Origin: Chiloscyllium plagiosum
Taxonomy: Eukaryota
Direction of reading: 5' to 3'
NCBI RefSeq assembly: GCF_004010195.1
Contig: NC_057718.1
Coordinates: 97,699,300 to 97,763,299, forward strand
Length of the DNA stretch: 64,000 bases
Each line of letters starts with the position of its first letter. Within the stretch, counting starts at the first letter, position 1. The position numbers were made by a program, and so were the translations under genes. Below the pieces are notes generated by a model. The model was given only the letters and a program-made list of their open reading frames with translations. It was not told where the DNA came from and made no database searches. Positions 4,206 to 58,265 of the stretch are shown piece by piece.

Positions 4206-4263
4206 GGAGAAGACTGAAATCATCCGATCTTACATTCATGAAGTGGTGCAGTCAATCAAAAGG
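4206..4263 (+). CDS. PLCB1: PLCB1 internal coding exon (58 nt), distal C-terminal coiled-coil domain
   Basis: ttgcag|G acceptor and AGG|gtacgt donor. After a 1-nt codon remainder it encodes EKTEIIRSYIHEVVQSIKR, matching mammalian PLCB1 EKTEMIRSYIQEVVQYIKR as recalled. Confidence 0.95.
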
Positions 4264-13286: not shown

Positions 13287-13373
13287 TTGGAAGACGCGCA
13301 GAGCAAAAGGCAAGAGAAGTTGGTGGACAAACACAAAGAAGTGCGTCAGCAAATTCTGGACGAGAAACCTAAG
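13287..13373 (+). CDS. PLCB1: PLCB1 penultimate constitutive coding exon (87 nt)
   Basis: Polypyrimidine tract plus ccccag| acceptor, AAG|gtacaa donor, phase 0/0. Encodes [29 protein letters not shown] (mammalian [29 protein letters not shown]). Confidence 0.97.
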
Positions 13374-13699
13374 GTACAATTCCGTGTCTGGAACTGGCTA
13401 AAGTATAGAACTAAATAATACATGATTAAGGGGCTATCAATAATATACCCAAGAAACCTCCAAGAATGAAGCAGAAATGTTGCATTTAGAGGGCCTTTTG
13501 TTTACAGTTGTTATCCTCTGCTGCTCTAAGATGGATGTTAGGTATGTTAAGGGTGAGCTGTGATCTGTCAGTCAGAATTGAGTGCCTGTTATATTCAATT
13601 TTACTCCATTCCCTTACATTTCTGTGGTCTAACGTGGTCAATACATGCACACCTTAATCCACGCTGAAGGATATGAACACTCACACTCAAGATGGAAGA

Positions 13700-14180
13700 G
13701 AAAGTGTTCACTCGATTGGTCCGGGGATTAGGGTGCGAGGAATGAGGTGTTGACCTTTGATGAGTAGCTGAGTAAATTGGGCCTATACTCTCTGGATTCT
13801 AGAAGAACCAGAGAGGAGTGAGAGGTGAAACATACAAGATTTTGGAAGGTCCTGACAGGGTAGATGTTAAGAAGTTGTTTCTGCTGGTCAAGGAATCTTA
13901 AGATAGTGGGGAGGTGCAGAGAGTAGTGGGGAAAGAGTCTCAAGATAAATGGTTGATCGTTTCAGACTGAAATGAGGAGAACTCACTTCATGAATGACAT
14001 GGATTTCATGGAATTTGGATTGACCATTCTTGAACATATTTAAGGCCAATTTAGGCAGGACGGGAAGCAGGCAGGAAAATGCAGTTGAAGCCTAAAGACC
14101 CAGTTGTGACTATACTGGATGGTGAAACAGGCTCACTGGACTAAATGGTCTCTGCCTGTTACTATTTCTTGATGTTTCAG
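13700..14180 (+). mobile_element. CR1 3' fragment (old)
   Basis: gttcactcgattgg...ctgagtaaattgggcctatactctctgga...gaaatgaggagaaac. Confidence 0.7.
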
Positions 14181-16005
14181 AATTAATCTTATCATTTTGT
14201 GTTGCAATTATTGTGTGGGTTTTGACTGTTTCTATTCCGAGGAATTTATAACATAAGGCACTGAAAAGTGCGTGACTTATTGATACATTCATATAATTTT
14301 TAGGTTTGGGATTTTCAAACTAGTGGCATGGGGTATTGGTTACTTTTGTGAAGGTCTTTTTTAAAATATATAGTCACAGTGTCTTTTCTGGAACCATGAC
14401 CTAATCCAGTATGTATTGGAGAACAGAAGACGACAAGCCCCCTGGACTTTTACGAAAAGATTGTTGATACAGTGAGGGGTTGGGGAAGTGTTCACATTGA
14501 TAGGCATTAGCTTGCTTTTGGTTTAGAATAATAAAAAATTGATCGTAGCTTAAAAAATTCAAAGACTGAGAGCTTTTAGGGCAGTTTTTTTGAAGGACAC
14601 CTGTCTCGGGTTGAAAGCAAATACAATTTCTCTCTTAGCAAGGAGGTTAAGACGGTTCAGGGAAAGCCCCATTACTTGGTGTGAGAGTTTCTGTTTGGTC
14701 AGAAACTGGCAAATATTTAAAACATTCAGAATATCTAAGTTTCCGAATTTGAGAGTATTTATGTAAGAAGACTTCACAGTTTACAAGACAGAAGATGTTA
14801 AGTCAAACTCAAAGATTTGATTCAGAAGGGTCATTACTCTAGCTTTCATGCTGTAAATTTGTGGAATAAATGAGACATTATTCTGCTGTGTGTTTAAGAT
14901 CTTTCAAACATGTATTCTATGTTTAAAGAGCTTGGTTCAGATTATATTTGTTTCTTTTTTGTGATAAGCTTCTGATTAATGGTTAAAGAAAATGCTCACT
15001 GAGGTAAAGAGTTCTATTGTGCTCTGTGCTGACTACCAATATTGAGGGAGAGGATAAAGTGAAGTTTCTAATCAGCCTATACAGAGATGTTATGACATAA
15101 CTCTGGAGTTGGTGGGGCTTGAACGCAGTCCTCTTGGCTTAGAAATAAAGATACTACCACTGTATCACAAGAGCCCCTGAGAGATTGAAATGAATTGAGT
15201 TAATAAACCCAAGCCAGCAGGTGAGGGAGAAACCATGGTGCAGAGCTTTACTTTGCAGTAAGAGTTTATTCACTTCCTTAGTCTCACACCTCAGTTTCAC
15301 AGCCATTCCCGACTAGATGTGCTCAAACACATTTAATATCCACCACTTGTTTTGTTTAACCTTAACAATTACATTAATAAGCCTTAACAATGTGATTGAC
15401 CAGACATTAAGAGATTGAATTTATCCCACTTTGATGATTAGCTGAGGAAGTCGATGATTCATGGCTGTCATTTCATCTGTTCTTATTCTGGCCATCAGCA
15501 GCCATTGGACTACAAAATACTGAATCACCAATGTCATTGTGGCTGACACTTGTCTTGGACACAAACACAATATCAGTGACGGTGAATCACTTCCCATTTT
15601 ATATCCCATGGGTTTCAGTAGAATCCGTTGCTTACTCACCATTATCTATTATGCACCACAGCCCATGAACAATTCCATGACAAATGTTACATCACAACAG
15701 TTATAGAATGAGACCATTCTATACCAGTTCTTTCTATGCAGTCCCGCTCCCTGATATTTCCCCAGGTAGGTCAGTCAATGAGGCATAAAATTAGGCAACC
15801 CACCCATCCATCCTCACCCCCACCCACCACTGAAACTTTATTAATCGCTGGAAAGACATCTGCTAGCCATGCGCCAACTGAAACCGTTACATTGCCAATC
15901 AATGGGATTTAAGGGCCTTAGCCCACTGCCACTGGGATTTCACCAAGAGCAGAATAGTCCCACATTAAGTGTCCAGCCTGGCAGCTTTCACTGGGCATGT
16001 ATGTG

Positions 16006-16102
16006 CCATTCCTGATGAAGGGCTTTTGCCTGAAACATTGATTTTCCTGCTCCGATGCTGCCTGAACTGCTGTGCTTTTCCAGCACCACTCTAATCTAGA
16101 AC
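16006..16102 (+). mobile_element. Penelope-like element end (solo)
   Basis: attcctgatgaagggcttttgcctgaaacattg. Flanked by catgtatgtg at 15996-16005 and 16103-16112. Confidence 0.75.
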
Positions 16103-16619
16103 CATGTATGTGTAGGGCAAAAGTGAGGGCATGCCCATCAGAATTTACCCCCTTAAGGTCTTCCATCTCTTATATTTCCTCTCCCTCACCACCAAAACCC
16201 CAACCCACTGATGTATAACTCCAGCTTCTTGGCATCCCATTGTTGGAATGGCCACCATCCCTGGTGACGCTATTGGGACCTGAAAGCAGGCAGTTAGAAA
16301 ATTGGTCAGTATTTCCAGGGGTGAGTCCACTTCCCCAGGTGGAGACCTAAAGCCCCCAGCTGAGCAATGCCGCCAGGCTCGGGCAGCAGGGTGCACCCTG
16401 GCTACTACCTCAGGGCAACAGAAACCCAGATGCTCTGCGCAATCCAAACCATGTCCCAATGTCCTCCTCCTACACAGATGGTGTTCATGTTGCCAAGTCT
16501 GCTTCCCTTTATCATTTTGCAGGTTATTAAACCGCAAGGGCAGTCACTGAGCTAACTGAAATACAGAGAAGTAACCCTACCTCTTGAGTGTTCATAGCAA
16601 TGGGTACAGTTACACAGCA

Positions 16620-17255
16620 ATGGCTGGCACAGTGGCTCAGTGGTTAGCACTTCTGCCTCACAGCGCCAGGGTCCCAGGTTCAATTCTAGCCTTGGGCGAC
16701 TGTCTGCGTGGAGTTTGCATGTTCTCCCTGTGTCTGCATGGATTTCCTCTGGGTGCTCTGGTTTCCTCCCTCAGTCACAATGATGTGCAGGTCTGGTGAG
16801 TTGCCCATAGTGTTAGGTGTCTTAGTCAGAGGGAAGTGGGTCTGGGTGGGTTATTTTGCAGAGGGTCAGTGTGGACTAATTGGGCTGAAGGGCCTGTTTC
16901 CGCACTGTAGGTTATCTAATCTTGCCTAAACATTTGGGGCAGCACGGTGGCTCAGTGGTTAGCACTGCTGCCTCACAGCTTGAGGGTTCCAGGTTAGATT
17001 ACAGCCTCAGGCGACTGTCTGTGTGGAGTTTGCACATTCTACCCGTGTCTGCGTGGGTTTCCTCCGGGTGGTGCAGTTTCCTCCCACAGTCCAATTTGTG
17101 CAGGTCAGGTGAATTTGTCCTGTTAAATTGCCCATAGTGTTGGGTACATTAGTCAGAAGGAAATGGGTCTGGGTGGGTTACTCTTCAGAGAGTTGGTGTG
17201 GACTGGTTGGGCCAAAAGGCCAGTTTCCACACTGTAGGGAATCGAATCTAATCTA
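16620..17255 (+). mobile_element. Two tandem HE1-like V-SINEs (~16620-16921, ~16936-17255)
   Basis: Two full head/V-domain/tail units. Confidence 0.9.
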
Positions 17256-18429
17256 AACTGGCTATAGTCCTGCCCCGTATGGTTGCACTATAAATGTTTG
17301 AACATGACCAAGTCCAATTGCACTTCTGAATGTGCTATACATGCACCTGTTGTTTCCCAGATACCATCCCAGCCTTTAACCCAGCTAACTTTGATGGGAG
17401 GTAAACCATTTTTGAAATACAATTGCAATTTTCATATTATTAATTGCAGCTATTGAACATTACTAAAACAAGCTGTGCACCCATGTCAGCGGTACCCTTC
17501 GCCCAGCTTCTAATTGCGATGAGTTACAAATTCTAATCAGTATATCAGGGCAATTTGAAATACACAATAAAGACAAAGCTGTAAAACCTCAAAGTCCAGT
17601 CATTAAAGATGCAGACGATGGCATTTTCCCTTTGATCCTGTTTCTTGAGTGAAATGTTATTATTACATGAGGGATGAAAAAGAAATTGTTGAGTGTTCTT
17701 CAGGACATCAGAAGTTGAAGCTCATGTTTGTTCTGTACAGATTTGGAGCTCGACAATTTTTCACCCATTCCATCATCTCTCAGGTTCTAGATCACAATTC
17801 ACAATTCTAATCACGTCACTTTCAGAAGAATGCAGAGGTCTTTAAAAAGGAATGGAAACATTACTATATAATTCCTAATCAAAAATAACGCACCCATGAG
17901 GGCATTTTGTTCATTACCATGACATTACAATGCACGCATATTAAATATTATTAAACTTAAGGGAGTTGATCTAATGTCTTTAGCACTGGCATTAATTGAG
18001 TTTTCACTGGTGAAATATAAATGTAGTATTGCAATGTTAAGCAACACAATGTTAGTGTTATCAAATAAATTAAATGATAGGGCAATTCACAATAGGGCCT
18101 CAAAATTCTTCAGGTCATAAAGCTGACTGTTATACAGTCAATATCGTCAACTTCATTCGCAAATCTCAGCATGTGCAAAGTGAGAATTAACATCTCAGGA
18201 TCTCTTCATGCTCCCCACAAACATTTTAATCACTTGTCTACAGAGGGTTAAGTGGAGAATCACACAAGACGATGAAAGATGTAACTAGATCTCTTGTTTT
18301 CCTGGTGCTATATTGGAAGATGGCCACTGTCATTTTTTCAGATGCCAACAAGTCCTAGTTTCTCCGATTAACCAACCACTGATGACCTGTGACTGGAATA
18401 ATTCTCAGCACCAAAATTTCTCCCTCGTT

Positions 18430-18680
18430 ATTTTCCTGATCAACCTGTTCAGAAATGTATTGGCACACCTCTGGAGCAGGTGGGACTTGAACCCTGGTGT
18501 CCAAGCCCGGATGTAGGGACACTACCACTGCACTACAAAAACCCCAAACTTCCCCTCTAGATATTTTCTAATCAACTTGTCCAGACATGCTATTTGCATA
18601 CCTCTGGAGCTTGTCGGACTTGAACACAGGCCTCCTGGCTCAGAGGAATGGACAATACCACTTTGATACAAGGGCCCTGG
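18430..18680 (-). mobile_element. Tandem pair of short (~115 bp) tRNA-derived SINE units
   Basis: Reverse of tgtggtgcagtggtagtgtccct...gggttcaagtcccacctgctccagaggtgtg...ctgaacaggttgattagaaaat, present twice. Confidence 0.65.
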
Positions 18681-19419
18681 ACACTTGCTCTCCACGCTGA
18701 ATCTAAGGACCTTCTAATTGTTAGTGGCAAAGGATAGACAATGATAGTGTCTTAACAAGATGAAACACTTGTGTGACATATGGGGTGTGGTTTATTGCAT
18801 TGTAACAATAGGTATATTTAACATTCACTGGTTAAGAATAATTGCAATGATATGGAGTCAGGTGTGTCGCATTGGTCTCCGTTGGGACTTTATGCTGCAC
18901 ACACACTCCTTCTCTACCCAAAGACTGTGTGACACCACCCATTTGGGTGGAGATCAATACAGCTCAACATTTATTCTTTCAGAACTATTGCTTTGCAATA
19001 TAGCGTGTGGAATATTGGAATTAATGAGATTTGGGAATGTTGCACTTTAGATTTTTGTGTTGTGATAAGTACACAGAATCTCAGATGTTTTACAGGATAG
19101 GAGAAGGCCACTCAGTGTCAATACTGGCTCTCAGAATGAGCTTCATGATTTATTACCATTCTCCCACCATTTCCCTGTAATCCTGCACAATGTATCAATT
19201 TCCATTTCAAAATGATAATGAGTGAATGATGCCTGGAACTTCCCCCACTATGACGTACACATTACAGCAGCTGGTTTGCCACTGCCAGATCGAGGGAAAC
19301 GAGCGGAAGGCAGTAAATTCTGACCGTGCCAATGACTCCCACATCAAAATGTTGTTCTGTATTTTCACACTTGCCTTATTGCTTTGCATAAACCAAAAAT
19401 GTGGTAATTTTATGATAGG

Positions 19420-19903
19420 GTTCAGAAATGATTTACCAGGATATTGCAAGGGTTGGACGATTTGAGCTATAGGGAGAGGTCGAATAGGCTGGCACTGTTT
19501 TCCCTGGAGCATCGGAGGTTGAGGGGTGATCTTATAGAGGTTTATAAAATCATAAGGGGCATGGATAGGGTAAATAGACAAGGTCTTTTCCCTGTGGTAG
19601 GGGAGTCCAGAACTAGAGAGCATAGATTTAGGGTGAGAGGGGAAAGATATAATAGGGACCTACGGGGCAAGTTTATCACACAGAGGATGGTGCACATCTA
19701 GAATGAGCTGCCAGAGGATGTGGTGGAGGCTGGTACAATTACAGCATTTAAAAGGCATTTGGATGGGTATATGAATAGGAAGGGTTTAGAGGAATATGGG
19801 TTGGGTGCTGGCAGGTGGGACTAGATTGGGTTGGGATATCTGGTCAGCATGGTCGAGTTGGACCGAAGGGTCTGTTTCCATGCTGTACATCTCTATGACT
19901 CTA
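19420..19903 (+). mobile_element. CR1 LINE 3' end
   Basis: GLDDLSYRERSNRLALFSLEHRRLRGDLIEVYKIIRG, with tail ctgtacatctctatgactct. Confidence 0.9.
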
Positions 19904-20686
19904 AGACAAAGATAAATCTCTATCATTTACACTATCTCCCTTGGTTAAGTTACTCTTCGAGCTGTCTATATGGTAGGTTGTTCTGTCCTTCGAATGTGAC
20001 CAGCCTGAGTTGAGATAGCACCTGCAGCATGACCCACAAAGCCCAACTGCTGGATTGAGGTTGTGTGACCGCCTACCCCGCCCACCCCCCGGCCCAACCA
20101 ACTTGTTATGCAATAAAACCAACTTGGAGCTGAGAAACAATCGATCTTCAAGGTTTGTGCTGGCACAGAAACTTGGATCTTACCACCATGGTACAGTCCC
20201 ACTATGGTTTATCGCATTTCAAAGCGCTGGAATATTGTGCTGAATGAACTGCCGTCACATTACTGGGCATGCCTGCACCCATGGTCTTCCCTAAGGCAAA
20301 GTCCTGGGTGTGAAAATAATATAGGGAAGTGGAAAATGGGCCCTTCAAGCTTATGTATATATCCCATATCTTCTTATCATTTGCCCTGGAGAGAGTTCAT
20401 GGACACTGATAATTTGCTTGTTTCTGGAGCCTTTATTCTTCCCTCACTTTTAACCCTCCCCTCACATTCTTTGGATACAAGAATGGGGGACCATAATCAC
20501 TGTTGTGTTGAACAGTTTCATATTGGTTCAGCAAAATCTTTTGGCTTTTGTACTGTGTGTCTGTATGGGAAACTCAGGTTCCAATATGGTACACTTTCCA
20601 ACCAAATCTTTGTCAAACAATTGCACACAACTTGGCTGTTCCTATTATGCAATCAAGTCCATTTATTTGATCAGACCCACTACCGT

Positions 20687-20998
20687 GGGGCAGCGCGGTG
20701 TCTCAGTGGTTAGCACTGCTGCCTCACAGCGCCAAGGACCCAGGTTCGACTTCAGCCTTGGGTGACTGCCTGTGTGGAGTTTGCACATTCTCCCCGTGTC
20801 TGTGTGGGTTTCCTCCGGGTGCGCCGGTTTCCTCCCACAGTCCAAAGATGTGCAGGTCAGGTGAATTGGCCGTGTAAATTGCCCATAGTGTTAGGTGCAT
20901 TAGTTAGGGGGAATGGGTCTGGGTGGGTTACTCTTCGGAGGGTTGGTGTGGACTTGTTGGGCTGAAGGGCCTGTTTCCACACTGTAGGGGAATCTAAT
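20687..20998 (+). mobile_element. HE1-like V-SINE
   Basis: Full-length unit. Confidence 0.9.
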
Positions 20999-21554
20999 AT
21001 AAAAAAACCCTCTGATGAACAATACCCCAACAGCGACATCAAAACTCTTGAACCTCACTAGCACCACGAGCAATCATCCCAAGCACAATGAGAACACCTT
21101 GAACTAACAATTGTATATTCCATTGGCACCCAACTTCACTTACACATTTAGCGATAGCAAAACCTCCCATTAAATTTGCACCCAAACCATAACCCTAATT
21201 CACCTGAGATAATGTACTATTCTTATTCAAACAAACATAAGAAATAGGAGTCGAAGTAAGGCCATTTGGCTCATCGAGTCCACTCCGCAATGTATTCGTT
21301 AACTGGGAAAATAATTTACATTTAAATATTTTCTCATTGGATTTGAAACAAGTAACACTTACACATATCCAGAGTGGAGCACATATAATAGAAAGAAAGA
21401 TACCGCAGTTGCTGAAAATCTGAAATAACAATAGAATTTCTTTTGACTCAGACCAGGCAGCAACAGCGGACAGAGAAGCAGTTAATGCTTCATGTTTGAT
21501 GAAGGGTTTCTGAGTTTTGTTCCACTCATGTGCTGCCAGACACGCTGAGCATTT

Positions 21555-21820
21555 CCAGAATGGCAGAACAATGCCATTCGACCCATTGAGTCTGCACCAC
21601 CATTCGATCACGGCTAATATGTTTCTCAATCCCATTCTCCTGCCTTCTTCCCATATCCCTTAAGAATCAAGAATCTATCTCTCTCCATTTTAAGTGCACA
21701 TAATGGCTTGGCTTCCACAGCCCTCTGCAGCAATAAATTCCAAAGATTCACCACCCTCTGGCTGAAGAAGTTCCTACTCATCTCAGTTTTAAAGCGTCAT
21801 CCCCTCGTGCTGAGGCTGTC
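21555..21820 (-). mobile_element. CR1 3' end fragment
   Basis: gccattcgacccattgagtctgcaccaccattcgatcacggct...gaagaagttcctactcatctcagtttt. Confidence 0.75.
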
Positions 21821-22526
21821 CCAACATTCCCCATCTCTAATGGAGCAAAGTAACCCCTTCCTGCCAGTTCTCCGAGCAGTGATTAGACTTTGTGTGAGCC
21901 TCTCATTTTCGTTTAGCAGGAACCCCAGCAAGAACTGCCTGGGAACTGGCACATCGTGAAACGTGAACTTAAATAAAAAGTGCAAGGAAAACGTAAACGT
22001 CTTACTCAGGAAAAATCAAAGTCAATAACTTGATCTTTTAAGAGGTTGAGTAATGAATAAATGTGCAGAACAGAAGGGCCAACTAACTAAACTTTTTAAA
22101 ATTGCCATTTCTAAGGAGGACAGCAAGAGAGGGAGACAGACTATACCCTAAGTTCTTGTCATTCCCAGAAGGGGGAAGGGCTTATCGGAACAGGGGCAAA
22201 ATAAAGAGTTACTAATCTTGTATTCACCCCTGACCATGCATACTCTGACCAAACCTTGATGAAATTCATAAGACAGTCAGGGCTCTGAGACAGATTGCCC
22301 TTTTAAGTGTGGGTTTTTCCATCCACTCCCTACACATGTGTGGATAGCTTTTTGTGGAGGGAAAGAGTATGGGCTTGTCAGTATGTGTCAGGCTCATTTC
22401 CAGTTTCAGAATTAGATTCAGAATTAAGCTCCTTCTCTTATTCCTTTCCAACTCCCTCTCTCTTTCCCCTCACATGAAAGCAAAGGTTACCATAGTACCA
22501 GAGGACCCTAAGTTTGCTTTCTCATT

Positions 22527-22549
22527 AGAGAGAGAGAGAGAGAGAGAGA
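22527..22549. repeat. (GA)n microsatellite
   Basis: Direct reading. Confidence 0.9.
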
Positions 22550-22919
22550 AATCTGGTGGTGAGTTTAACATAACAGTCGCCACTGCTCAGGCGAGATTTT
22601 ACCGTGTCGATGGTGCAGGAATGCTGTCGATTGCTAACCAGCCCAACTAAGCAAACAGACCTCCATCACACCTTTCTTAATCTCACTCTGTCTCTCGCTC
22701 CCACTCTAACACTGACCTCTCTCCATCTCTATCAGGGGAATGTTGGCATCGCTTATGATGTCAATTAAAGGACATCGTACAATAATCACAGTGGCTATAG
22801 ACCAACGGATTGTGCCTGTGGTGACTATGTTCACAAATAATGGTCTTTGATTGAAGAGAATGGTTTGTTCATGCCTGCTCTGTGTGGATCCCTCGTTATT
22901 TTGAGGTTTTTGATCAGTT

Positions 22920-24130
22920 CATAGAATCCCTACATTGTGGGAGCAGGCCATTCAGCCCATCAAGTCCACACTGACCATCCAAAGAGCATCCCAACCAGAT
23001 AACCCCACTCCCCACCCCATTATATTCCTGTAACCCTGCATTTCCCATGGCTGACCCACCTCGCCTGCACATACAATTTAGCATGGCCAATCCACCCTAA
23101 CCCGCACATCCTGGACACAAGGGAACCATTTAGCATGGCCAATCCATCTAACTTGCACATCCTTGGAGTGGGGGAGGAAACCCACGAAGTCATTTACTGG
23201 TCAGAGTATTGAGTACAGGAGTTGGGAGGTCATGCTGCGACTGTACAGGACATTGGTTAGGCCACTGTTGGAATATTGTGTGCAATTCTGGTCTCCTTCC
23301 TATTGGAAAGATGTTGTGAAACTTGAAAGGGTTCAGAAAAGATTTACAAGGTTATTGCCAGGGTTGGAGGATCTGAGCTACTGGGAGCGGCTGAACAGGC
23401 TGGGGCTGGAGTGTCGGAAGCTGAGGGGTGCCCTTATATAGGTTTACAAAATTATGAGGGGCATGGATAGGATAAATAGGCAGTCTTTTCCCTGGTAAAA
23501 ACAATGACTGCAGATGCTGGAAACCAGATTCTGGATCAGTGGTGCTGGAAGGGCACAGCAATTCAGGCAGCATTCGACGAGCAGCAAAATCGACGTTTCG
23601 GGCAAAAGCCCTTCATCAGGAATGATGAAGGGCTTTTGCCCGAAACGTCGATTTTGCTGCTCGTCGAATGCTGCCTGAATTGCTGTGCTCTTCCAGCACC
23701 ACTGATCCAGTCTTTTCCCTGGGGTCGGGGAGTCCAGAACTAAAGGGCATAGGTTTAGGTTGAGAGGGGAAAGATATAAAAGAGACCAAGGGGCAACTTT
23801 TTCACACAGAGAGTGGTATGTGTATGGAATGAGCTGCCAGAGGATGTGGTGGAGGCTGGTACAATTGCAACATTTAAAAGGCATTTGGATGGGCATATGA
23901 ATCAGAAGGGTTTGGAGGGATATGGGCCGGGTGCTGGCAGGTGGGACTAGATTGGGTTGGGACATCTGCTCAGCATGGACGAGTTGGACCGAAGGGTCTG
24001 TTTCTATGCTGTACACCTCTATGACTTTATGACACAGCAGAATGTGCAAACTCCACACACGCAATCACTCAAGGCTGGAATTGAACCTGGGTCCCTGGCA
24101 CAGTAAGCAGTGCTAACCACTGAACCACTA
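22920..24130 (-). mobile_element. V-SINE split by a + strand CR1 (~23190-24030)
   Basis: SINE tail and V-domain at 22920-23185, SINE head at ~24032-24130. The CR1 between encodes SIEYRSWEVMLRLYRTLVRPLLEYCVQFWSP. Confidence 0.85.
23496..23707. mobile_element. Penelope-like hairpin element, family A, inside CR1
   Basis: Near-perfect ~85-bp inverted arms. 15-bp duplication cagtcttttccctgg at 23481-23495 and 23708-23722. Confidence 0.85.
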
Positions 24131-24869
24131 TACTGCCCCCAGTTCACCTCTTCTCTTTAAAGAGTATAACTTCAACCTCTCCGATCTATCGACATAACTG
24201 AGCTCCTTCATCTCAGTCGATGGAGTATTTCATCTTTTGTGTTCATGGATTTATTTGTGGGCATAAAATATGGCTGTTTTTAACTGTAATGCCTTTTAAC
24301 CTCAAGAAACAATGTATTAAGAACTAAAGCCCATTAATTAATCATAGAATCTGAAATAGATTGACTTGAACTAATCTCCAAGTCCATGCATTTCCCAGTT
24401 GGTCGGAGCTTTGATGCATTCTGGACAAGCCTGTATATGAAACCATCCAGTTTGAAGAAGGTGCTTTAAGGAGGGGATTATAGGATCAAAGGAACACGTG
24501 ACGTTATTCAGGAAATTAAAAACCAATGAGTACTTTTCAGAACAAATGCATAATTATTTAAATGAGACAAAAAATAACCAGTAATCCTGTCTGAGTTACA
24601 ATAAGCAAGAGCTTAAGTGAACACATTGATGTAGTCAGTATTTTCCAGGAGGGTCGGGTACCTGAGAAGGAAGATTGAAAAGTTTGACAAAAGAACAAAA
24701 GGGGCATAAAAGTAAAAGCATTTTTACACAGAACGTGTGGGTTTATGTGTGTGTGTTTACGTGTGTGTGTGTGCGTGTGCATGTAGCCTGTTAGAACAGG
24801 GATAATGTTTGCTCATGGAATCCTGCAATGTGGAGAAGCTGTTCTGCAGCAACTCTCAATGTTCGGGCA

Positions 24870-25315
24870 GTTAGAGTCATACAGCACAGAAACAGACCCT
24901 TCTGTCCAACCCGTCCATGCTGACCATAATCCCCAAACTAAACTAGTCCCACCTGCCTGCTCCTGGCCCATATCCCTCCAAAAATTCCTTATATGTGTCT
25001 TTTAAACGTTGTAACTGTAACCCCCCTCCACTATCTCCTCTGGCAGTTCATTCCACACACGAACCACTCTGTGTAAAAACACTTCTCCCTCACGTCTTTT
25101 TTAAATCTTTCTCCTCTCACCTTAAAAATATGCTCCCTAGTCTTGAAATCCCCCACCCTAGGGAAAATGCTACTGCCATTCACCTTATCTATAGCCCACA
25201 TGATTTATATACTTCTATAAGGGCACCCCTTAATATCCTATGTTCCAGTGAAAAATGTTCCAGCCTGTCTTTATAACTCAAATCCTCCATTCCTGGCAAC
25301 ATTCAAGTAAATCTC
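24870..25315 (-). mobile_element. CR1 3' end
   Basis: agagtcatacagcacagaaacagaccct start, then typical CR1 minus-strand sequence. Confidence 0.85.
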
Positions 25316-25740
25316 TCACTCTTACAACTTAACCTAGATATAACAGAAAACTTGATACTTGCTCCACACCTTCCATGGTCATTGAGTCCTGGGATGGGAC
25401 TTGACCCCACAGTTTCAGGACCCTAAGTGGAGGTCACTACCCACTGCACCACAAGACCTCTCCTCATGTTCGGTGGTTAGGATCTGGCGTGCACTGCTTA
25501 AGTGTGTGGTGGAGAGAGATTTAAATCGAAGCAACTAAAAAGAAATTTCTCTGGGATGTAGAGAAAGGGTACAGGAATACAACAGGTAGAGTTATCATGG
25601 CAGCAGGCTGAATGGCCTACTCCCCTACCGTAGCCATTTTGATACATTTGTTTTTACTAACAGAATTGAAAGCGTCTTAAAGCTCATTTTCTGTCAACAA
25701 AGCAGCACTTTGTTTTGTGACAGGGATTGAAGTATCACAG

Positions 25741-25968
25741 TGGGGCAGCACAGTGGTTAGCCCTGCTGTCTCACAGCACCAGGGACCTGGATTTGATTCC
25801 AGCCTATGTGTGGAGTTTGCATGCTCTCTTCGTGGGTCTGCTCATGTTTCCTTCCACAGTGCAAGTTAGGTGGATTAGCCGTGGGAAATGCAGAGTTACA
25901 GATTGAGTCTGGGTGGGATGATCTTTGGAAGGGCAGTGTGGATTCAATGGGCCAAATGGGATTCTATG
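25741..25968 (+). mobile_element. HE1-like V-SINE (deleted, diverged)
   Basis: Head, partial V-domain and tail. Confidence 0.75.
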
Positions 25969-26515
25969 ATACTGCTGAGGCTTCTGTTGTAAATTCATAA
26001 CAAAAAGCAATTGTTGTAATTTCAGTGACATGGCTACACCAACAGATGGCACCCAAGTAATTCTGAATCACATTTATCGACCTTTTACGGCCTTTCTCTT
26101 TAGGGATCGAAGCATTGACTTAAATTTCGCAGTCATTAAGGTTAAAAAGCAACACATTCCCAACTGTGTTTGAATTTCAAATGCACTTGCACGTGCTGTA
26201 AATTTTTAATGGGCTCTGAGCTTCATCTGAGGCAGTGAGACAGCTGTAGTGTAACGTACAGAGCAAAATGAAGCAAGGTCTGGTTAGCTATTTGAAATGA
26301 TTATCTTGGGTAATCCAGTCTAAAGTTGTTAAAACTTTGTGACACATTTCAGGGATGCATTTGAAATCATTGTTTCATAGTTCTATATTATGCAACGCTA
26401 TTTAGCATGACTGTGTGGCTTTTCGAGAAAAGATGATTAATATTGTGTGTTTTCAGTGAATTTCTATGATGTTACTATTGTAAATATTATTTTCATTCTC
26501 CCCATTTTGCTGCAG

Positions 26516-26601
26516 TATTTTCAAGACATTGAGGCAGAATACTCTGAAAAAAATGTTGCACTTGAGTAATCCCCCCCAGAGCCCACTGTGTTACTTTCCC
26601 T
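26516..26601 (+). CDS. PLCB1: Candidate alternative (cassette) PLCB1 exon with in-frame stop, YFQDIEAEYSEKNVALE*
   Basis: Pyrimidine-rich acceptor ttttcattctccccattttgctgcag|, donor CCT|gtaagt at 26602. Phase-0 reading has TAA at 26567-26569. Peptide resembles the start of the terminal exon. Lies in repeat-poor DNA. Confidence 0.6.
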
Positions 26602-28399
26602 GTAAGTACAGACTAAGACAAAGAATCATTATGCACACAATTCAATCATTTTTTTTATTTGAAAAGAAATTATTGGTTCAACAGATTGTCTTCTAAATTA
26701 TTATGCCTGATCTCTGTAGCACTCGAGAGAATAACATGGTGTTGCGATACTGTATCCCAAATTTGTTTGTATGATCCAACGTGAAAAATTAATGATTTGT
26801 CTTTGCCAGTACCAATAGCCTGAAGGGGACATTTCAGAAAACAGGAAGCCCAGTAGAGTCTGCTTAGCAACAGAAAATAGTAATAATTCAGGGTTGGCTA
26901 AGTTGCAGTGTTGCAAAGGGGCGTGATCTAGTTGAGCCACCAATGAGAGTGATTGAGTTGCCTTAGTAACTCGCTTGTCCCCTGATATTGTTAGGGCTAG
27001 TTCAATTACAGGCTGCGGTTGCTTGTTTTACTAGAAGCTTGTTTCAATATATCAGTTTAAGAGTACACATTATAGCTGGGTCTCAGATAGGAAGCTGAAT
27101 CACACTGTCAATGCATGCAAGTTGGGGGACGTTTGCGAGTGTTAGAATTGTGGAAGGGGAGGCTTTGGTGTAGAAATCATTTATTCAGGAACTGGAGGCA
27201 AAGCTTTATTTTCTTAATGAACGTGTTATAAATTAGTTAATGATTAGCTGGGGACTTAACACTGCGCAATTCTGAAATTGAAGTTGTGCAATAATTTGGA
27301 ACAGGTATGTCTTCAGTGTGAGACATTCTCTTTGTTTTGAGATTCAGGTTTACCAATAGAATGCTTTTTGTTGCCTTTACACCAGCTGAAGGTTTTTATT
27401 CACAGGCAGTATATTTTGCTGGAATCTAATGCTGCATGCCCATTGATTTACAGTCCTGTGGTAAAGAGTGCACTCTATTGTAATATGAAGGATATGTGTA
27501 TGTATTCCAGGCTTTTAATGGTCATTTTTTCCCTTCAAGTCTTTCTATAGCCGGTACAAAGCCCTAATGGGACATTTAGGCGTTATTATTCTCTTGGCTT
27601 TTAAAATAATAGTTTTGCCTGTGGCTGACACAACCTGGAACATATTCAGGAAGGTACAATTGTTCATGCCAACAAATAGTATTGTGCAGAAATGCTACTG
27701 TTGTGGTCAAGGGAGGTGGTGGTATGAATAATAAACAGGAGCAATATAGGTTGAAAGGTATTACTTTACGCAAAGGATCACCAGAGAGGGATTTAAGGTG
27801 CAGAGGGTTAGATAGATTCCTGAAACCAGCCATACAGTATTCAACAGCAATGCAGAGAACAAGTAAAATAATGGAACTGTCTGGCTAAAGTAGTAGTGTG
27901 TTAATCTGCAGAAGTGAGATCATTTGTACAGAGCACTGTTATGATTCCACATGTATAATTACAACCATCATATTAGGAGAAAGTCATATTGAGAAAAAGG
28001 TAAAAAGTAACAGAGTTGATACCCTCAGTGAGGCATTCAAGCTCTGATGGGAGAATAAGCTGAGAATGTTTGTATTGGATAATCGGATTGAAATAAATTG
28101 TAAAGAGTGTAAACTGTGGCACTGAAATTCCATGGAGTTTGTAATAGTCTCCTGGCACAACTATAACAGAATTCTGTTGGGTTTTTAAATCTGAAGTTAT
28201 AATGGGAGCCCTCAGGAACATTGAGCTGAATATGTTCAGTATTCTCATGAATTTGACTACAGAGTGCATTATGTCCTAGTTAGATTTAGGTTCAATGTCA
28301 CGTGTATTCAAGTTGTGGGTACAACAATACAGTGAAAAGTGTATAATGTCACCACACACAGTGCCATCTTAGATACAGAAATAGAGAAATAAAGAAATA

Positions 28400-57678: not shown

Positions 57679-58034
57679 ACAACTTCGTTCCACACACAGC
57701 TGTATAAAACAGAAACTAATCATTGGTCTATCCAATCCAGTGACTAAAATGCACCAAAAATTCTTAGTACAAGTCACTTGGAAATACAATCATGCTCATT
57801 ATATTGGAGTGTGCTTTGTATGGGAGAGACAGAGTGCTGTTGTGAGTGTATTTACACTTCAAAGACTGCTCAACATCACCCTCTGCATGACAATTGGGAA
57901 TGGTCAATCAATTTTGGTCAATGCTCACATCTCTTGTATGAATTTAAAAAAAGATAAGGCACAATGTTCTTACCTCACTATAATATGTTCGTCCTGGAGA
58001 ATTTGCAGCATGACAGTTTTCTGCTTGTTTGCAG

Positions 58035-58265
58035 CTGCAGAGTGATCTCGATCAAGAATACCAGGACAAGTTTAAGAGGCTGCCACTGGAGATCCAAGAA
58101 TTCGTACAGGACACACTGAAGGGGAAGTTCACTGACGATGGAGATCACAGTGCTCCACCTCCCCCCCTAGCTCCAGATAATGGGAAATTGAATCACAAGA
58201 CATGTTCCAATGAGGACGACTTGGAAGACAATAAATCGGATAAAGTCTTCGCTACTTCCCTTTGA
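58035..58265 (+). CDS. PLCB1: PLCB1 terminal coding exon (PLCB1a-type C-terminus, 76 aa)
   Basis: tttgcag| acceptor. Encodes [31 protein letters not shown]...NHKT...KVFATSL*, matching mammalian PLCB1a [31 protein letters not shown]...EFDTPL. Confidence 0.97.

Follow-up and report, generated by a model that had tools for sequence, protein, structure and literature searches.

A conserved 17-residue alternative tail of PLCB1 in cartilaginous fishes, likely helix-completing and likely a duplicate of the last-exon start

The last intron of PLCB1 in the bamboo shark Chiloscyllium plagiosum holds an 86-nt segment with splice signals at both ends and a stop codon inside it, which raises the question of whether the segment is a real exon, where it came from and what its use would do to the enzyme. 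The window, the whole 64,000-nt stretch of DNA that was analysed (contig positions 97,699,300 to 97,763,299), covers the 3' end of the gene with its ordinary coding exons (Table 1), the last of which equals the end of the long-form record P0125 exactly and differs from Chiloscyllium punctatum P0001. With the alternative exon counted in, the last intron of 44,661 nt divides into 13,142 + 86 + 31,433 nt. On balance, we read the segment as an annotated exon that supplies a conserved tail of 17 residues for one of 76, which likely completes a helix, has no PDZ-type end and is likely a duplicate of the start of the last exon.

Table 1 Features of the PLCB1 3' end in the window (positions are those of the window).
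Feature	Position	Strand	Basis
PLCB1 coding exon EKTEIIRSYIHEVVQSIKR, distal C-terminal domain	4206..4263	+	tblastn of P0001; peptide letter for letter in P0125 and P0127; GTACGT next
Last shared coding exon LEDAQ...DEKPK, phase-0 donor GTACAA	13287..13373	+	sequence reading
Acceptor region of the alternative exon: 57-nt AG-free zone, pyrimidines 16/20, TGC at 26508 and 26511, CAG	26456..26515	+	sequence reading
Alternative exon, coding part: 17 codons YFQDIEAEYSEKNVALE and TAA	26516..26569	+	equals the ends of P0127 (XP_043552520.1) and P0128 (XP_072437564.1)
Alternative exon, 32 untranslated bases from stop to donor	26570..26601	+	exon end inferred from donor
Donor GTAAGT, one of 6 GTAAGT in the intron	26602..26607	+	sequence reading
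Last exon, coding part, 76 aa LQSDLDQEY...FATSL and stop, long 'a' tail; second acceptor at 58041, six bases in	58035..58265	+	equals the end of P0125 (XP_043552519.1)

Two features of the last exon itself were seen in passing. Its acceptor is a tandem one (CAG/CTGCAG/AGT, window 58026-58046), records that omit the first two last-exon residues occur in catshark (P0005), birds (P0035) and amphibians (P0088, P0163), and by comparison of these sequences the two-residue choice looks conserved. The long tail ends (window 58260-58265) in FATSL in Chiloscyllium and Hemiscyllium and in (F/Y)DTSL in most other sharks and rays, which places the FATSL ending, on the aligned records, as a recent change beside the PDZ-type end.

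The sequence holds what the preliminary description had reported for the alternative exon: an 86-nt segment at 26516-26601 in the form CAG/.../GTAAGT (acceptor ttttcattctccccattttgctgcag, donor gtaagt), a phase-0 reading of YFQDIEAEYSEKNVALE followed by a stop, and 32 nt from that stop to the donor. Its wording of a strong acceptor and a consensus donor was borne out in that the signals are present and the GTAAGT is full, but in a simple screen of the 44,661-nt intron for acceptor-donor pairs the exon was one of 35 that passed (one of four with GTAAGT), 11 of 529 intron acceptors had 17 or more pyrimidines against its 16 of 20, and its last three bases, CCT, form a non-consensus exon side of the donor. 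Splice signals by themselves are insufficient to pick out this exon in the intron. Two TGC triplets stand right before the acceptor AG (window 26508-26513), a feature of SRRM3/4-dependent neural exons; the exon exceeds microexon length. Rbfox (TGCATG) and QKI (ACTAAY) motifs were absent within 300 nt of the exon.

The description had also called the exon hidden, and here it was mistaken, as RefSeq already carries it: PLCB1 isoform X2, XP_043552520.1 (P0127), is 1201 aa long and ends ...DEKPK YFQDIEAEYSEKNVALE, letter for letter the window exon. Isoforms X1 (P0125) and X2 (P0127) belong to one gene model, and in the exons tested neither departs from the window by a single letter. The records that carry the exon are predicted gene models, and the short-tail records come from several series (XP_, GCB73460.1, A0A4W3HCE5, V9KI04); the V9K UniProt entries of elephant shark presumably derive from cDNA sequencing, in which case V9KI04 (P0373) would be transcript evidence. 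A search of sequencing runs with four sampled words of the 86-nt exon listed no RNA holder, a result that weighs neither way. With gene models and conservation as the grounds for its splicing, we consider the exon almost certainly real and expressed.

Conservation was assessed in 422 collected proteins, including 59 from cartilaginous fishes, 55 of them with the junction. The short tail occurs in at least 16 of these 55 records and at least 13 of the 23 species seen, counts that hold among the matches listed (15 of 21 and 15 of 26 members in two clusters). The species are two Chiloscyllium, Hemiscyllium, Stegostoma, Heptranchias, Heterodontus, two Scyliorhinus, two Mobula, Narcine, Pristis and the chimaera Callorhinchus, in which the tail reads YLQDVEAEYSEKNIVD; matching isoforms include XP_072437564.1, XP_067845535.1, XP_051866914.1 and XP_042189595.1. 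Rhincodon, Pristiophorus, Mustelus, Carcharodon, Cetorhinus, Hypanus, Hemitrygon and three skates are without a short-tail record among those listed, most of these 10 species having one record each. The skate records P0007, P0161 and P0162 are all three long forms, and skates may have lost the short exon or may show a gap in annotation.

Across 13 species, 9 of 16 columns of the short tail are invariant and the stop keeps its position to within one codon. Shark and chimaera tails are identical at 11 of 16 positions, against a maximum of 9 in 500,000 shuffles, and the same two lineages share 62% identity in the long tail and 83% over the whole protein. The peptide is kept from chimaera to rays, and the shark short-tail isoform of the preliminary description is annotated and conserved, though its range is wider than sharks, taking in rays and chimaera too. 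None of 344 other-vertebrate PLCB1 records with the junction, and none of 150 representatives, has a tail of the shark type. As that other-vertebrate sample leans towards long forms, and its named rows are listed without lamprey, hagfish, coelacanth or bichir, the age of the exon is a lower bound: by its distribution among the sequences the exon is older than the chimaera-shark split, which took place about 400 million years ago. Two further endings were each seen in one species, a single D in Heptranchias X3 (P0130) and EHRMLIPLCS in Heterodontus X4 (P0145); in the window intron nothing convincing was found for a D-stop exon like the former and no counterpart of the latter.

The preliminary description had pointed to a gap-free likeness between the short tail and the start of the terminal exon, with 5/17 residues identical, and in this fixed register the likeness is above chance (BLOSUM62 score 21, shuffle P 0.0009). 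The tail scored best of 1,306 open 17-mers that follow an AG in the intron, the last exon itself set apart. The profile of 13 species, set against 22 distinct long-tail starts, scored 15.5 at shift 0 (P 0.0027) and no more than 0.6 at 14 other shifts, and the exact-register match to the PLCB1 last-exon start had a shuffle P of 0.0016. A similar pattern emerged in the wider family: against 19 non-PLCB1 PLC-beta rows (27 of 150 representatives cover the region; six with missing or irregular tails were dropped and two PLCB1-like ones set aside) the short tail scored 11.8 (P 0.0001; 0.0027 over eight offsets), and the family motif E-Y-x-E-K falls at positions 8-12, with L16, in register from the acceptor. 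No gap is needed to align human PLCbeta3 through the tail (LLAQLAQECQEQR / LLAQLAQECQEQRARLP); L2, E8, E11 and L16 are common to it and most short tails, and C9 to it and those of the rays. The relative P0427 reads LQGAVEAEYQEKF at the tail, close to chimaera YLQDVEAEYSEK. Position 17, at which the short tail ends, is occupied by a proline in PLCbeta3 and by a conserved one in the long form.

Other results temper the case for descent. Among the 1,244 17-mers of the long protein, the one at position 994 scores 22, above the 21 of the short tail, so coiled-coil composition can reach such scores. The chimaera tail alone gives weak values (P 0.034 and 0.014 anchored; 0.30 and 0.17 at free offset), and the tails of axolotl (P 0.006), birds (P 0.015 at +2) and P0423 (P 0.013 at +2) also fit the last-exon helix pattern, out of 17 tails tested at two offsets, which repeated selection would explain as well. 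In DNA, the short-tail codons and the last exon are 19/51 identical (codon-shuffle P 0.10) and their flanks are without evident likeness; likeness at this level is expected to be lost after some 400 million years. A family search of the genome for paralog exons returned five matches, all at model positions 3-189 of 272. Descent and selection for the same groove cannot be told apart by protein likeness. Judging from these alignments, we hold duplication of the last-exon start to be the likelier origin.

The strongest rival is that early cartilaginous fishes took a piece of the intron into use as an exon, and that its peptide was selected to fit the groove of the coiled coil and merely resembles the last exon. 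This would suit the absence of a DNA signal beyond the peptide, the nature of the matched residues, which are acidic or lie on the helix face, and the unrelated-looking short tails of other lineages at the same junction, three of which fit the helix weakly. It would also demand many parallel changes to bring E-Y-x-E-K and L16 into exact register from the acceptor, and the exon region, which a DNA search found to be unique, without a second copy in its own genome, has no match to any repeat of the window. We regard recruitment as possible but doubtful.

The remaining rivals concern how the exon is used. It could be an alternative last exon, closed by a poly(A) site within the intron, with the GTAAGT at 26602 unused, and the protein records fit that form and a cassette equally well; the CCT before the donor and A[AT]TAAA hexamers at about 27730, 28092 and 28388 would agree with it. 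No such hexamer, however, lies within 300 nt, the donor is a full GTAAGT, one of only six in 44.7 kb and placed 32 nt past the stop, and a pig gene model (P0078) has a 39-residue insert before the last exon, so that by implication the mammalian 1b exon is a cassette. We rate an alternative last exon as improbable. Less probable still is a poison exon that lowers PLCB1 output through nonsense-mediated decay, its peptide being incidental: the exon does have a stop, and inclusion would make a long 3' UTR of the entire last exon, in which hexamers extend to 63278, but the stop lies just 32 nt before the donor, against the more than 50-55 nt that decay calls for, and the peptide is constrained in its invariant columns and in its stop. 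A chance splice-site pair copied among species by gene-prediction programs would match the 35 similar pairs of the screen and the predicted status of the records, yet it is hardly credible for a peptide conserved from chimaera to rays in several record series.

As a cassette, the exon would be included by joining 13373 to 26516 and then, likely, 26601 to 58035. A stop within 50-55 nt of the last junction escapes nonsense-mediated decay, and at 32 nt the stop is inside that limit, so the mRNA would escape junction-dependent decay and would encode an enzyme of 1201 aa in place of 1260 aa.

The protein consequence turns on the distal C-terminal domain, a coiled-coil bundle that binds membranes (PMC12195575; bioRxiv 10.1101/2022.12.20.521270). 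In gap-free alignment, the splice junction falls inside a stretch that matches the end of this domain in solved PLCbeta3 chains (4gnk_E 159-248, 8emx_A 1092-1180; sequence only). The residues of the junction region in these chains we take to be helical. Computed helix propensity is equal in short and long tails, and the angle of the hydrophobic moment is 84-89 degrees in short tails and 71-73 in long ones, as against 303 in rat 1b. With helix propensity and a hydrophobic face like those of the long tail, the short tail likely carries the final long helix of the membrane-binding coiled coil to its end and then stops.

The alternative exon exchanges 76 residues ending ATSL for 17 ending VALE. 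PDZ ligands follow the pattern S/T-x-L, and the loss of a PDZ-type C-terminal end claimed in the preliminary description is borne out in the change from ATSL to VALE. Five cartilaginous-fish short tails that we examined have no proline and no PxxP; with this and the VALE end, the tail would bind neither PDZ scaffolds nor the SH3 domain of Shank3. PDZ scaffolds may couple PLC-beta to selected receptors (PMC10296670). The short enzyme would keep the catalytic core, the Galpha-q sites and a complete distal coiled coil, and would lose the segment past the conserved proline together with the variable tail, leaving it active and membrane-competent without a tether to PDZ scaffolds. The splice choice would in this way switch off scaffold coupling and leave the membrane-binding bundle intact. 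The mammalian a and b forms are reported to share a common Galpha-q activation profile and to differ in location (PMC11126630), which fits a role in targeting.

Short tails are not confined to cartilaginous fishes. At the same junction, gar and bowfin have DGSSSDEEAAKRA, sturgeon and paddlefish DGSSSDGEAAE, birds, lizards and turtle SIEE...EKQK, and axolotl VPEQLEENLP(G/EHAAR), all of them, like the shark tail, short, acidic, stop-ended and without a PDZ-type end. That one junction carries short tails, though different ones, in mammals, reptiles and birds, axolotl, gar and sturgeon, and cartilaginous fishes points to an old origin of the long-short switch. Homology of the shark tail to those of gar, sturgeon, bird, lizard, axolotl or mammals is unsupported (P 0.27-0.96; non-mammalian tails 0.27-0.74 at free offset), and nine other tails, compared with the shark intron (all but its 500 N) after each of its 3,132 AGs, gave nothing convincing. 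A 16-residue in-frame exon of the TILLADWNVITNEHSV type lies in the same intron in caecilian, axolotl and turtle (P0230, P0241, P0187), before the SIEE tail in the turtle model; the likeness to the shark tail seen by eye was rejected (P 0.085-0.35), and no homologue of this exon was found in the shark intron.

Some resemblances among the other tails deserve mention. The tails of gar, bowfin, sturgeon and paddlefish (P0182, P0179, P0171, P0174) start DGSSS, like the G[ED]GSSS of mammalian 1b (P0392, P0376; P 0.002-0.03), gar and bat sharing this start at P 0.002 in one of 29 pairs tested, and on these sequences the mammalian 1b exon may go back to early bony vertebrates. The tail EDGSQEVEGKQ of P0423, nearest to ray-finned fish PLCB1, shares QEVE-KQ with bird P0201 SIEEQEVEEKQK (P 0.0013, one of six pairs) and starts like the DGSSS tails, which makes it a possible link, as far as such short sequences go, between the fish and the reptile-bird short exons. 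It is conceivable, though we think it rather unlikely, that one ancient duplicate of the last-exon start predates the split of sharks and bony vertebrates, stayed a helix tail in cartilaginous fishes and drifted into the other short tails and mammalian 1b; the gar-bat, bird-P0423 and helix-fit hints leave this open, and not all of them would survive correction for multiple tests. If it were true, the ancestral job of the 'b' form would have been to drop the PDZ ligand, Shank3 binding would be a late mammalian gain, and the mammalian descendant would be the proline-rich tail tied to heart disease.

Alternative exons that arose through tandem duplication of an exon form a general class. The shark exon resembles them in its phase, its shared upstream donor and a probably homologous peptide in register, and differs in that only the first 17 codons of the last exon are mirrored, in a putative copy 31 kb upstream with a stop and a donor of its own. 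As a sequence it is already catalogued, RefSeq giving letters and an isoform number without a statement on origin, structure or function. Our literature search, which left most subscription journals and supplementary isoform tables outside, found no paper on a shark PLCB1 short tail or an evolutionary account of it. The new part is likely the reading, of a strongly conserved, pan-chondrichthyan short tail, probably helix-completing and distinct from the mammalian 1b exon, and the gain is thus interpretive and modest: the shark exon varies a known splice switch and is annotated but little described.

That switch is best known from mammalian PLCbeta1, in which 1b swaps 75 residues for 32 at the same junction (PMC12195575). 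Mammalian 1b binds the SH3 domain of Shank3, which targets it to the sarcolemma (PMC10175600), and its proline-rich tail ties PLCbeta1b to cardiac hypertrophy (PMC12195575; PMC10175600). Like mammalian PLCbeta1b (rat P0376, bat P0392), the shark exon sits at the last-intron junction in phase 0 after DEKPK, bears a stop, replaces the long tail and removes the PDZ-binding end. The peptides are unrelated, as the preliminary description had recognised: the shark tail reached a best ungapped score of 9-10 against the 32-residue 1b tails (shuffle P 0.82 and 0.96), and no homologue of the bat 1b tail follows any of the 3,132 AGs of the shark intron, the best score being 15, with a stop. The rat 1b tail is proline-rich (6 Pro, 2 PxxP), whereas prolines are absent from the shark tail, which fits the helix pattern. 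In mammals, the b switch costs the enzyme its PDZ ligand and also truncates the coiled coil at its end, whilst the shark form separates these effects, dropping the PDZ end without gaining a proline motif and with the helix likely whole, and would in this respect serve as a natural control for the behaviour of 1b.
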